DNA from: Eledone cirrhosa
Lineage: Eukaryota
DNA length: 64,000 nt
Assembly: GCA_964016885.1 (NCBI GenBank)
Contig: OZ024745.1
Location: forward strand, 99,820,001 to 99,884,000
Direction: 5' to 3'
The notes beneath the pieces were generated by a model. It did no database searches, was not told the origin of the DNA, and saw only the letters and a program-made list of their open reading frames with translations. Of the stretch, positions 11,923 through 57,147 are shown piece by piece. The translations under genes were made by a program, and so were the position numbers. Position 1 is the first letter of the stretch. Every line of letters starts with the position of its first letter.

Positions 11923-12264
11923 TAAAGGAAAACAAGGACGATTGGTTACTCCTTCATTACATTTATTGGTAGGTGACGCGCGTTTCGCCACTGATCAGCT
12001 CAAGGTTCGATCTGTATTGAAAGGGTCTGTCGAGCTGCCGATCATTGAGTCAGGTAGGATCGATACAGATCGAACCTTGAGCTCATCAGTGGCGAAGCGC
12101 GCGTCGCCTACCTATAAATGTAATGAAGGAGTAACCAATCGTCCTTGTTTTCCTTTCAATATATTACACTCTGTATAGCTCTACAGCTCATCACAGAAGT
12201 GAACCTAAACATTAAGTGCTCTCCCAGGTGAACCTACATTAACTCCAAGTTACACCCCCTGGAT
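11923..12264 (+). mobile_element. Fold-back element (~93 bp inverted arms plus unique tail) with hammerhead 3' half, Penelope-like
   Basis: Arms at about 11924-12016 and 12063-12156; GAAACGCGCGTC-ACCTACC-AATAAA motif; flanked by (TA)n; deleted relative at 50673-50855. Confidence 0.7.
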
Positions 12265-13756
12265 ATATATATATATATATTGTTATTATAAAGATTCTCT
12301 GCCCTACAGTTAAGCTTTTACCATTTTTATAGCACGTTTCTTTACTTGTTTTTCTGTTATATTTTGTCTGTTAAAAAATACATACTTTATGATATAAACA
12401 TCTTTACTGTTATGTTTTATGTGTGCTTACATTTACTGTTTGTTTATGACCTGTAACTTAGTAGTTCCCAAAAATGGTTTAGAAAAAAAATACTGGGATC
12501 AATATAATTGGCCAAATCCCTTTGAAATAGTGCCTCAGCATGGCCATAGTCTAATGGCTGAAACCAATAATAAAGAAAAAAAAAAAGAGAAGAATAGTGA
12601 ATTTCTTTAGAAATATGACCACAGAGTTGAGAATAGACTCAGGGAGAAGCTTCATTTACAGATCAAGTAAATCACATATTTGCCTTGAAATTTTTGAAAG
12701 GATAATTGACTTTGTAAAATCTGATGCTGTGGAGAAACAAAAGTACCTGTTTCAAACAAAGATCAGTTCTACCATAAATATATTTTATTCTGTCCGACAT
12801 AAGATTGTGCTCAAAGCATCAGTACATCACAAAGCTTACCAACATTTTTTTACTTTATCCAACACATTTTGGCAATATAGATCATGAGTTGCAATGAGTG
12901 GTGGTTTTTATTTGAAACCTTTGTGAAGCAGTAGAAATGTGAAGCTTGATGCAGCTAATATTAAATTTACCAGTCAAAATAGATTAAATGACCTTTCTTT
13001 TCTTTATTTGATTCTGTTTTGAAGCAATCTAGAAAAACTGTTGCAGATTAAAATCAAATATTTAACGCTCATCATCAGCAGTTAACTATTGAAAGATAAT
13101 CTGTTTCTGACAAATGAAAAAAGACACTCTTGAAAAACAAGCCACTAATGTAAATAACAGCAGTGACAACATGCATGTTTACATATGCACTTATTGCATT
13201 CACATAATATGCTCTTTGGGGTTATTCAGCTGTCAGAAAATATTTTCTTTGATAAAATGTGCAAGACATAAGACAATGCTCCCAAGTTAAACCGATTCCC
13301 ATTGCTCTTAAAAAGGTTAGACCCTGTTGGATACTAATATGTGTAGCCTGTTATGCTATATTATGAAATACTAGACAAACATTCAACAATACAAGCAAAT
13401 TTACATATGGATTGTTTGTAGCAATATATTCCAGACTGACAATCTGGAAGATGAAATAAAGAATAAAAATAAAGTTCCAGCTGAGTAATACATGTATTTT
13501 AGCTGTAAAATTAATCACTCCGCCTACCCATTATTTTTGTTACTTAGCTCATTTGTAGTTTGCCATTGTGTTGGTGGTCCCGCCTACTGAAATAGGGTTG
13601 AGGTGGTGGGAAAGTGTGAAGCAAATGAAAATAAGAAATAATAAATTTAAAATTTACTACAAAAAAATAAGTTAGCAATAATGTCATTTACTTGCAGACT
13701 GATGAAACATTCCATATTGAAACCATACAATTTTCTATACAGTTTCATATATATAT

Positions 13757-14284
13757 ATGGTAGGGGGGTGTTCCAAGGCCATAGTATCTAGAATAAGGAT
13801 GAAGGGTTTCTCCCTGCATACGAAAGGCCGGTTATATGATTCTTGTGTGAGGTGCGCAATGCTACATGGTAGTGAGACATGGGCAGCAACTACAGAGGAT
13901 ATGCGATGGCTGGAGCGAAATGAAGCAAGCATGCTCCGTTGGATGTTCAATGTCAATGTACATGAACGACCGAGCATGAATGTGTTGAGAAACTGTGTTT
14001 AAGAGGGATAAGTTGTAGTGTGTGGGAGAGAAGACTGCAATGGTATGGACATGTGATGCGCATGGAGGATGACCGCTGGGTAAAGAAGTTCCAAGAACTG
14101 CGAGTAGAAGGAAGACGCAGTAGAGGAAAACCACGAAAAACATGGGCAGCAGTGGTGAGAGCGGACCTCAGATCGCTGAAACTCACGGAGATGACGAAGG
14201 ACTGTGACAAGTGGAGAGATGCTGTGTTGAATAGGACCCGTCCCACCCTTGCAAGCAGGGAAAAGCAGATGTAAAATGATGATA
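13757..14284 (+). mobile_element. RTE LINE 3' fragment with (GAT)n tail
   Basis: [20 protein letters not shown]...RLQWYGHV...GKPRKTW...[10 protein letters not shown]. Confidence 0.93.
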
Positions 14285-14329
14285 TATATATATATATATA
14301 TATATATAATTCGTTTTTTAATTTGTTTT

Positions 14330-15014
14330 ATGAGATTTCTTATCTGAAAACGTGTGTTGAAACATTGCTATGCTGCCAATAAAAACTCATGCACCTGTTG
14401 GTTTTCACTTCAATTTATTATGTTTCCAGTTGGTTGGTTCCATAACCGGAAGGTTGTTTATATATTGACAAAGCTCTTTCGTCACACATTCTGTGACCTC
14501 CTCAGTGACTAGGACACATTAGAGAACATAGAGATAAAAATTATATCTACACACAGAAAAGATGCAATGCTCAGACAACAAATATTTGTAACAGGCAACA
14601 AATATAAACAAACTCCAACCAAAATTAAACAGAAAACATGAATGGAATAGCAACATCACAACTAGTAATTAAGGACAAAATGAAGACATACAGACACACA
14701 AAAAAAAAACCCAACAAAACAAATCAGACACAGAAATAGAACAAACACCCAACTAGTGACAAGTAAATAAACACATAAATAAATAAAAATACACACCTGG
14801 ATGTAAAGCATATGCAAACTAAGCACACAACACACAAAAACAAGATGCTGTAGGACAGAACAAAGGAGAGACACAAAAAATAAAAACCTAGTCACTGAAT
14901 GTGTGATGAAAGCTTTGACAATATATAAATAACCTTCTGGTTATCAAACAAACCAACCAGAAACATAATTGAAGTGAAATCCAACAGGTGCATGTGTTTT
15001 ATTGGCAGCATGGC
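14330..15014 (-). mobile_element. Penelope-like 3' remnant with inverted partial pLTR
   Basis: 14367-14513 is an inverted copy of 14888-15014, separated by ~375 nt that is T/G-rich on the minus strand; hammerhead core in the arms; TA repeats on both sides. Confidence 0.7.
14464..14512 (-). ncRNA. Minimal type I hammerhead ribozyme motif
   Basis: Minus strand: GTCA-CTGAGGA-G-GTCACA-gaatg-TGTGAC-GAAA-GAGCTT-TG(T/A)C, i.e. CUGANGA, a 6-bp stem II, GAAA and a short AGCT-type stem III. Confidence 0.6.
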
Positions 15015-15186
15015 TCTCTCAAAGTATAACTATATATATATATATATATATATATATATATATATTTATTTTAAGTAAGAATATTTTCGAAACAGCGAGT
15101 TGGTTTGAAATTATTAGAAATGTAAGCTATCGCCGTATTTTGACTAAAGAAATTAAAGAAATCATGATTTAATAAATGATTTCTTT

Positions 15187-54817: not shown

Positions 54818-55454
54818 TTGGGGCTGGGAGTCTGGTGTGGAAGTAGTTCGTAAAATAAAAAAAAACAATAATAATTCGAACCTATTCAAGCGTACATGTC
54901 TTTTTTCCTCCAAATTTGTGCAGTTATAGAAAAAGGAAATTCCTTCGGATCTAAGTGGTTTATTTATAGGAACTACAGGCATGTGGTTGGAATGTCTCGG
55001 GGGGGGGGGGGGGAATAGCTAGGCAGGAAACCCAGAGCAAGATAGTCGAATATCATCTAGGAGCTCGATTTCTCTCGCTTCAGGATCCAACCGGATCAAT
55101 TGGAGACGGTTGCTTCTGACGCGACCCGCTGGAAGGTGTGTTTGAGGACTGTGCCGCACCACCCTCTCAAAAAAAAAAAAAAAAAAAAAAAAAAAAAAAC
55201 ATTTGCGTATGAAAAACATCTTGGAGAATAATTTTGAAAATTCTGAACTGATATACAATTTTATGAAGGAAAAATAAATAAATTAAAACAAAAACTAATT
55301 TGCTAAGAATTCAACTATAACAGAAGTTCTCTAACTTTTGGGGCCACTACCCCCTTATGGCCATGTAATTCCCTCAACGCCTATTTCCAGAGAGACCTAC
55401 CTACATGCAAATTGTAAATAATGTATAATAAATAAAATCGTTAATTGATATATA

Positions 55455-55920
55455 ATTGTTTCTACTTTAGGCACAAGGCCAGCAATTACCCAGTTCATTA
55501 CTGGTACTTTATTTTATCGACCCCGTCAGGATGAAAGGAAAAGTCAACCTCGGCGGGATTTGATATATAATATAATATATACTATGTATTAATGAATATT
55601 ATATATTTTTTATTTTACTATATTTATATGTATGTATCATCTGATATATAATATACTATTATATCATCTCTTCCACCACCCCTTAGGCCCCTGCACCTTC
55701 TCGAGCCCCCTCCCCCTCCCGGGGGGGGGGGGGGGGGTTAGTAGCGCCCACTTTGAGACCTCTGAACTGCAATAATAATTGTTTCCACTTTAGGCACAAG
55801 GCCAGCAATTACCCAGTGCATTACTGGTACTTTATTTTATCGACCCCGTGAGGATGAAAGGCAAAGTCAACCTCGGCGGGATTTGAACTCAGATCGTAAA
55901 GGGACGTAACTATGCTGCCA
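55455..55920 (-). mobile_element. Two partial SINE family B copies
   Basis: 55455-55562 and 55772-55920 are reverse complements of family B and share an internal deletion. Confidence 0.85.
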
Positions 55921-55964
55921 TGCAATAATAATAACAATTGTTTCTACTTTAGATAATAATAATT

Positions 55965-56125
55965 ATGCCACGTGATTAAAAATTTCGCTTCGCAATCACG
56001 TGCTTTGGAGTTCAGTCTCATCGCGAAGCACCTTTGGTATGTATTTACTATAGCTTCTGGTTGACCAATGTCCTGTCAATAAAGTTTGGTATGGTAGACG
56101 GAAACTCTACGGAAGCCCACCGGAT
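55965..56125 (+). mobile_element. tRNA-derived SINE (family C)
   Basis: B-box-like GAGTTCAGTC, GCACCTTTGG..., end GGTAGACGGAAACT..GAAGCCC followed by TA repeats. Confidence 0.55.
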
Positions 56126-56775
56126 ATTATATATACATATATATGTATATAATATATACATATATATGTATATATGCATATATACATACATACATACATA
56201 CATACATACATATACACACGTGTCAATGTCAGTGTTCGACAAAAAGAAAGGTCGATAAAATAAGTACTAGACGTTTTTTTTTTTTTTAAGTGCTGAGTTC
56301 GACATGATCGACTAAAATTCTTTCAGGATAGTGCCCCAGCATGACAATCTAATGGTTGAAACTAGAAAAAGAAAAAAAGTAAAAGAATTCTATCTCTATA
56401 ATATGACACTAACAAAGAAAAACAGACATCGAAGAAAAAGGGTTTATAACAATTACGACAAATACATTCATGATGCGTAACGAAAACACTAATTTTTTTT
56501 ATTTAGGAGGTTTAACACCTGCCCAGAGCCGCAGGGCCTAAGATCTTCAGCATAACATATTTTGCTTTGTTCTTTACAAGTTGTAATTTGCCTTAATCTA
56601 GGGTGGGCAAATTATTACTCTAAATAATGATTTCTTTTATTTATTGTTTCTTTATTTTATTATTGTAGATTATATACTTTATTTAGATTCAATATTCCAC
56701 TAAACGTGGAAGACACAACTGTAGACACTCACATCTATTGCTACCATGGCCTGACTTAGGTGCCAGATTGAAAGA

Positions 56776-57147
56776 GTGTGTGTGTGTGTGTGTGTGTGTG
56801 TGTGTGTGTGTGTGTGTGTGTGTGTGTGTGTGTGTGTGTGTGTGTGTGTGTGTGTGTGTGTGTGTGTGTGTGTGTGTGATCACGAGGAAAATGATGAATG
56901 AAGTAGGGAATATAATATATTTTTTTTTTTTTTTTTTTTTTTTTTAATATTTCAGTTGCTACTCTGAGTTTTAATATTTCAGTTGTTACTCTGATTTTAG
57001 CAGATCAGCTTGTGTGGCCAGAGGGGAGCCAGCGAAACTCAGAGTAGCAACTGAAATATTTAAAAAAAAAAAAAAAAATTATATTCCCTACTTCATTCAG
57101 CATTTTCCTCATGATCACACACACACACACACACACACACACGCACA
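56776..57147 (+). mobile_element. Fold-back element with hammerhead 3' half, between (TG)n and (CA)n
   Basis: Arms 56877-56971 and 57035-57116; GCCAGC-GAAACTCAGAGTA^GCAACTG at 57028-57053; the flanking microsatellites extend the inverted repeat. Confidence 0.7.

Follow-up and report, generated by a model that had tools for sequence, protein, structure and literature searches.

What are the short, hammerhead-bearing elements that lie in the microsatellites of Eledone cirrhosa? The window examined here is a stretch of 64,000 nucleotides from contig OZ024745.1 (G000:C5:99820001-99884000), within a 3.0-Gb genome, AT-rich and microsatellite-rich. It holds five families of such elements, which we call A (11923-12264, with a relative at 50673), B (14310-15030), C (18849-19132), D (copies at 22010, 52930 and 54004) and E (56879-57118). 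All lie where an original prediction, made from the sequence by itself, had placed them, and all abut (TA)n except E, which abuts (CA)n. That prediction took them for non-autonomous, retrozyme-like families. We consider it probable, rather, that they are 5′-truncated and often head-to-head doubled hammerhead terminal repeats of coding Penelope-like elements (PLEs), likely produced by a reverse transcriptase (RT) that starts inside the RNA and runs off a nearby 5′ end. The parents of D and A would be Hydra-clade elements, as those of C and E likely would be too; that of B would belong to another PLE clade.

Coding parents

A genome-wide DNA search shows that families A to D have many copies. 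The numbers of candidates (A, 2,826; B, 5,856; C, 3,061; D, 1,853) come from a first look in which 40 were scored per family, and are not copy numbers. The parent of D is a tandem unit of 3,531 bp. A pattern for the long 3′ end of D gave 535 exact matches and none in the control, and 16 of 30 sampled loci continue into the leader. Three of five arrays, retrieved as six stretches, carry open frames of 717-719 amino acids (L242:4183-7713, at G000:C1:437.20 Mb, L244 and L247). Between arrays, unit identity is 97.6-99.7%; within one array it is 100% and 99.97%, which, together with the open frames, points to recent activity. The predicted protein has the motifs RWR and DKT, a CxCx5C linker (CNCPDRSIC) and a C-terminal VIY..YIG without CCHH. 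Since these match the description of Hydra in section 11 of PMC8557442, we assign the D parent to the Hydra clade; the assignment was made from motifs and by-eye comparison with the alignment in that paper. Among 8,000 scored sequences, 2,049 are homologues at E ≤ 1e-20. The predicted model of the protein has a pLDDT (predicted local distance difference test) of 93.6, and its best fold matches are telomerase RTs; a Pfam search with the 717-residue protein gave no match, and sequence searches against solved structures returned nothing useful.

The three D copies of the window are palindromic stumps. The first (22010..22203, minus strand) has a long arm at 22142-22010, an inverted short arm and a junction at 22138-22153; in the second (52932..53098, plus strand), with its junction at 52957-52972, the inverted arm is shortened. 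The third (54008..54201, plus strand) consists of an inverted short arm (54008-54064) and a long arm (54065-54201) with G12 of the hammerhead at 54081, and is 94% identical to the intact unit in L242 and 98.5% to the frame-linked L309. The window copies are 94-95% identical to the intact 3.5-kb unit and form a sister subfamily. This subfamily has 23 read-through matches; the frame is present in sense at 17 of the 20 sampled, and frame-linked copies reach 98.5% identity to those of the window.

A is linked to a Hydra-type frame as well: in L075 its tail continues into one that is 37-55% identical to the D protein, and in L254 and L257 the frame, about 2.2 kb of untranslated region (UTR) and A are contiguous. 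The parent again has RWR, DKT, a linker of the CNCKKRAEC type and VIY..YIG. In the window, the inverted short arm of A (11923..12020, minus strand; 95-96% identical to L257 and L075) carries the hammerhead 3′ half GAAAC-GCGC-GUC and AATAAA, with its short stop in (TA)n. The direct long arm (12017..12264, plus strand) is a pseudo-long terminal repeat (pLTR) of a Hydra-type PLE, with a degenerate 5′ half CUGUCGA at 12027-12033, GAAGC instead of GAAAC at 12094, a GUC site at 12103-12105 and a 105-nt tail. The element at 50673 had been called a deleted relative, and so it is: it belongs to A, with 87% identity in the tail, and retains an inverted piece (50708-50737) and the tail (50760-50855), without the GAAAC half (50675..50855, plus strand). 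Just before A, at 11777-11882, lies a repeat piece that contains GTGATCAGCGG, is 79% identical to a segment of L252 and is possibly another decayed family.

Of 20 RT-bearing loci, 13 are followed downstream by B in sense orientation, two of the 13 only by short pieces of it. Its parent has an IVY..YIGE motif, DKS and an endonuclease (EN) of the CxxC/CCHH type, and is therefore not Hydra but another PLE clade. The Pfam match to RVT_1 is weak (E = 3.9e-5, below the cut-off), and Pfam gave no GIY-YIG match for this parent. The long arm of B in the window (14310..14512, minus strand) is a pLTR with a minimal hammerhead. The inverted arm (14512..15030, plus strand; 80-81% identical to L259 and L261) comprises a broken GIY-YIG endonuclease C-terminus (14513-14640), a 3′ UTR and, up to the short stop, another pLTR whose hammerhead is deleted. 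The description of the elements as non-coding thus fails for B.

The C stump (18849..19132, minus strand) is a pLTR whose type I hammerhead is complete (18988-19084) and which also has AATAAA and a tail. At L248, an inverted Hydra-type frame with linker and EN runs into the upstream sequence of C, and the C parent is likely Hydra-type. Neptune-like fragments near the C loci L167, L249 and L264 were considered as the parent and set aside: in two cases other insertions lie between the fragment and C, and in the remaining case the two meet at an inverted junction. The Neptune-like PLE itself (L249:469-2765, also L264 and L167), with a Pfam GIY-YIG match, is a further PLE clade in this genome.

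E (56879..57118, plus strand), in (CA)n, has inverted arms round a hammerhead broken at core positions 3-4, with GAUCA at 57003-57007 and GAAAC-UCAGA-GUA from 57034. A DNA search with E found only itself, and a pattern gave 14 matches, itself included. Its stem III, ACUC-A-GAGU, equals that given for Penelope-3_HM in File S2 of PMC8557442. By motif, E is likely Hydra-like; no parent was found.

Tandem or partial-tandem units forming pLTRs, an inverted 5′-truncated copy and a tail, all hallmarks of PLEs (the tail an optional one), are seen here, and the flanks of A, C and D copies show insertion into (TA)n. What the original prediction said of PLE-linked hammerhead motifs, inverted partial pLTRs and a preference for (TA)n is therefore borne out, as is the linkage to PLE RT/GIY-YIG frames that it proposed to look for. 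It is this linkage, contiguous at several loci for D, A and B and at one locus for C, that leaves the reading as non-autonomous, retrozyme-like families unsupported.

Copy ends and a proposed mechanism

Copy ends were sampled by picking copies by their 3′ part only, taking 30 loci each for D, C and A among 40 scored; from about 970-1,770 candidates per sample, the 30 best were used, window copy included. Coordinates count from G12 of the hammerhead. Each of these families has two fixed 3′ stops (D, +42/+125; C, +73/+163; A, +70/+175), the short stop on the inverted arm and the long stop on the direct arm; inverted arms end at the short stop in 18 of 22 D copies, 13 of 18 C copies and 9 of 11 A copies. 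In D, 24 of 30 copies have their 5′ end within the stem II loop, at -24..-12, and 2 of 30 reach the 5′ core. Those of C lie at or 3′ of -104 in 28 of 30, with 15 of them at -104..-90. The 5′ limits of D (-22) and C (-104) both fall on the A of a CATTT motif, and this pile-up, seen in DNA ends alone, likely marks the RNA start. A start site inside the pLTR is known for Penelope (PMC8557442), and an Inr-like (initiator-like) ACATT has been noted (PMC3846280).

The two 3′ stops and the tail match the two internal RT start sites of the anole element PAc, which give the tail; in PAc, both strands are cut and extended (PMC11167929). We propose that the element protein would nick (TA)n on both strands, that priming would occur at two internal sites, by analogy with PAc in vitro, and that the two cDNAs, both ending at the RNA start, would be joined head to head to give the palindrome. 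With a D start inside the stem II loop, the stumps would receive only the 3′ half of the ribozyme; the half-hammerheads of D would exist because the likely RNA start lies inside the ribozyme. In C, where the start would lie upstream, many stumps would receive all of it. No PLE paper using the term “twin priming” turned up in our literature search.

An ATYGAGYRC motif is shared between or near the two 3′ stops in the tails of A, C and D (54146, 53041, 22065, 18921) and in the E relatives L293, L296 and L304. A similar stretch occurs in the 3′ end of Hydra-2_Amil. The motif is a candidate protein-binding or RT-start signal.

Ribozyme cores

The hammerhead-derived motifs are real, and their cleavage is predicted. 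C has an 8-bp stem I, CUGAGGA, a 62-nt stem II region and GAAAC-GAUU-GUA. It is the sole window match of a type I descriptor (one observed against a mean of 0.08 over 60 shuffles); with stem I of at least 8 bp, for which C qualifies, none of the 60 shuffles matches. The family has CUGA(G/A)GA, position 7 being free, and a weak stem II closed by U-A. B had likewise been listed as having a complete core, and both core halves are there (CUGAGGA at 14499-14505, minus strand, an unpaired G, a 5-bp stem II and GAAA-GAGC-UU, with a CUU site), but one substituted base in stem I made it fail the descriptor. Its relatives keep stem I, UGAC against GUCA, in 22 of 23 parsed copies (30 sampled). The unpaired G before stem II is typical of minimal PLE hammerheads (PMC4209133).

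For A, D and E, 3′ halves alone had been described. The 3′ halves are present, but the direct arm of A keeps its degenerate 5′ half and E keeps GAUCA. The core of family A is CCGUCGA in 18 of 24 parsed copies (30 sampled), and no canonical or variant core lies within 120 nt; a CUGAUCA in A was rejected as core, since no stem I accompanies it and its counterpart in the alignment with C is the stem II loop. The 5′ core halves that are absent from the window stumps occur in longer copies. In intact D, the core is UUGA(G/U)AA, hence U3:A8, in 11 of 16 read-through copies. A D sister family (L153-L164; 86% identity), with frames broken in 12 of 12, has UUGA(C/A/U)AA, again U3:A8 with a variable position 7. 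The U3-A8 core is already in print (PMC4209133; PMC3088659). In the window’s D subfamily, 11 of 20 loci read CUGA(G/A)AA, which gives a C3-A8 mismatch; nine did not parse. The minimum-energy fold of the D motif is a three-way junction, and its 6-bp stem III folds as a monomer.

The window E copy keeps, besides GAUCA, a 3-bp stem II (57003-57033). Its relatives, which are old and decayed, have GUGAUCA (G3:C8), a 4-bp stem II and a stem I of GUUGC/GCAAC; the pattern gave 23 matches against none in the control, two being dropped as minisatellite. When positions 3 and 8 were left free, C8 was present in 10 of 10, with G3 in eight and A3 in two. Stem I covariation in this family is not significant: 74 of 115 cells pair, against 69.6 in partner shuffles, 11% of which reach the observed value, a calculation that used all 23 matches, including the unrelated minisatellite L287 and L288. 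Pairing falls to 31-37 of 115 cells when the strands are slid. G3:C8 is known as an engineered variant (PMC3884650; PMC11167929); we found no natural G3:C8 core in the literature, in a weak search that did not cover colon and dot spellings. Rfam over the window returned microsatellite noise, with no hammerhead among the 150 of 576 matches listed, and no hammerhead reached the gathering score in four related loci.

As to a CUGANGA half paired through the stems, it is present in C and in the family of B; intact D has U3:A8 and the E relatives G3:C8 instead, and A and the window D subfamily lack such a half. One genome thus displays a series of cores: C3:G8 (B, C), U3:A8 (intact D), a C3-A8 mismatch (window D), degenerate (A) and G3:C8 (E relatives). 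Self-cleavage is likely dispensable for copying, because the subfamilies with mismatched (window D) and degenerate (A) cores also multiplied; PAc ribozyme mutants still insert as well (PMC11167929). We offer only as a speculation that in this natural series G3:C8 was a once-selected, active core, and that the start of intact D splits the ribozyme so that it could fold only in the downstream repeat, in the manner of a long terminal repeat (LTR); the stumps would then be stranded strong-stop cDNAs, and the ribozyme would trim only the RNA’s 3′ end.

Two further structural claims of the original prediction concern inverted copies and AATAAA. Inverted copies are found in A, B, D, E and the relative at 50673, whereas C has none in the window. 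An AATAAA directly after the cleavage site is confined to C and to A’s inverted arm; in B it lies about 50 nt further, and in D and E the 42-44 nt inspected contain none.

Alternative explanations

Could some families, the D palindrome, E and perhaps C, be true non-autonomous units, transcribed and copied in trans by a PLE protein? We think this unlikely. No frame was found for E, and for C a frame is linked at one locus only. D palindromes retrieved with a query that bore the junction show 97-99% identity, and in most of them the junction is one and the same, as a palindromic master would also produce. Against such units, junctions differ among D copies chosen by their 3′ part, so that the fixed master hinted at by the first query is weakened by the junction-free one; variants occur in both arms of single copies (L044, L055, L059); and the window D subfamily has frame-linked copies of up to 98.5% identity. 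Far less probable still are non-LTR retrozymes, short tandem units cut by their hammerheads into circular RNAs that reinsert. They too have type I hammerheads with palindromic stem III, whose dimer pairing is predicted here at -5.7 to -32.1 kcal/mol, and bioRxiv 2026.07.22.740005 derives retrozymes from pLTRs. Yet in the 1.5-kb flanks of 260 loci (not genome-wide), there is no same-strand pair less than 1 kb apart at 60 A, 30 B and 60 C loci, and the 18 such pairs at 110 D loci are all without the 5′ core. These 260 loci show no 150-450-bp units that repeat head to tail and carry a whole hammerhead apiece, contrary to the tandem arrays expected of retrozyme-like elements; copy ends miss the cleavage site; and D, A and B, as well as C at one locus, do have coding parents in cis, none having been found for E. 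The elements are not retrozymes but ordinary PLE stumps of a known kind.

A real rival to run-off, if one we hold to be the less probable account, keeps the same parents and attributes the pile-up and mirror arm to RT stalling at RNA structure with cDNA fold-back, or to self-priming on an antisense template (PMC3846280, which reads palindromic junctions as self-priming). The D pile-up does lie inside the long stem II hairpin, and the two arms share variants. The C limit at -104, however, is not within the ribozyme but 35 nt upstream of its core; the C and D limits are both on the A of CATTT; and several D copies end at the same place without an inverted arm. Several observations also weigh against the explanation that we prefer, terminal repeats of coding PLEs truncated by run-off. 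CATTT, a motif that attracted attention only afterwards, is frequent (0.0027 per nt). Family A is a poor fit, as 10 of 30 copies pass -170 and the rest scatter. The single junction retrieved by the junction-bearing query has been mentioned. The start of the D query, 3 nt ahead of the cleavage site, slightly disfavoured copies that begin at that site. The link of C to a frame is one decayed locus (L248), and no C copy read through the tail. No frame for E lies within 1.5 kb of 36 related loci, and the GIY-YIG domain of the D protein is assigned by motifs only.

Comparison with known systems

The Hydra clade of Craig et al. (2021; PMC8557442), which includes Hydra-1_Obim, has the same single frame of about 700 residues, RW(K/R), DKT and CxCx5C, the same C-terminal GIY-YIG without CCHH, a pLTR hammerhead and (TA)n targets, and the same 5′ truncation, inverted copy and tail. 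The units here are longer than the stated <3 kb (3.5 kb in D, and about 2.2 kb of UTR in A), and the tails, at 83-105 nt, exceed the 30-40 given there. The Hydra hammerheads listed in the part of File S2 consulted have CUGANGA throughout, in contrast to the U3:A8, C3-A8, G3:C8 or degenerate cores found here. Hydra-1_Obim, the one octopus Hydra family of that paper, differs by eye in its N-terminus and hammerhead. The families are probably new, in the Hydra clade plus one other PLE; the description “uncatalogued” may hold at the family level, whereas their architecture, with 5′ truncation, an inverted copy, a tail and (TA)n targets, is already in print there.

Known PLE hammerheads are likewise of type I with a short palindromic stem III, have the unpaired base between positions 9 and 10.1 that B shares, and for the most part occur singly, in PLEs that are truncated, with some forming closely spaced inverted pairs; the U3-A8 variant of D has been reported for Schistosoma Cercyon. 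The differences here are the 6-bp stem III of D, which folds without a partner, and the stem II regions of 50-60 nt in A, C and D; what we could consult of that literature makes no mention of a G3:C8 core. PAc, a Poseidon element from Anolis (Frangieh et al. 2024; PMC11167929), resembles these elements in its two fixed RT starts defining the tail, its AT-rich targets and a ribozyme dispensable for insertion in vitro. PAc is of another clade; its frame begins inside the ribozyme and its RT starts lie within the frame, whereas both D stops are in the 5′ UTR, the D ATG being 213 nt after G12. Non-LTR retrozymes (PMC7229834; bioRxiv 2026.07.22.740005) have the same type I hammerhead and pLTR-related sequence, and differ in their arrays of short units, arranged head to tail and each with its full ribozyme, which the 260 loci lack, and in that coding parents exist here.

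Other features of the window

A further hammerhead-like 3′ half, GAAAC-ACCAGA-GUA, which the original prediction did not name, lies at 53830-53950 (minus strand) beside (CA)n/(TA)n. A tandem duplication of 356 bp with 99% identity occupies 15187-15903, and a 14.2-kb (TA/TACA) microsatellite spans 29486-43732. This microsatellite and a gap of Ns adjoin a long interspersed nuclear element (LINE) frame with endonuclease and RT (43758-46700, minus strand), presumably RTE-like, with copies at 251-1937 and 63083-64000. Two adjoining frames of 227 and 226 residues at 23775-25139 (plus strand) resemble a Chapaev-type DNA transposase, and a 380-residue open frame with a DDD motif at 58483-59625 (minus strand) resembles an exon of a chondroitin-synthase-type glycosyltransferase. 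DNA contigs of four runs over 53700-54500 showed high repeat depth and no spanning piece, and are silent on empty sites.

Implications

For the most part, these elements are ordinary: hammerhead-bearing PLE stumps in (TA)n are already in print, and what is unusual is modest and limited to the swapped G-C pair in one core and to copy ends at the likely start site. Nevertheless, the literature has yet to settle the role of the PLE hammerhead and the origin of the inverted-plus-tail structure (PMC8557442; PMC11167929). Both questions become testable with a Hydra-clade element that is young and has open frames, together with sister subfamilies with paired and mismatched cores. A natural G3:C8 core, if true, would escape descriptors built on CUGANGA.

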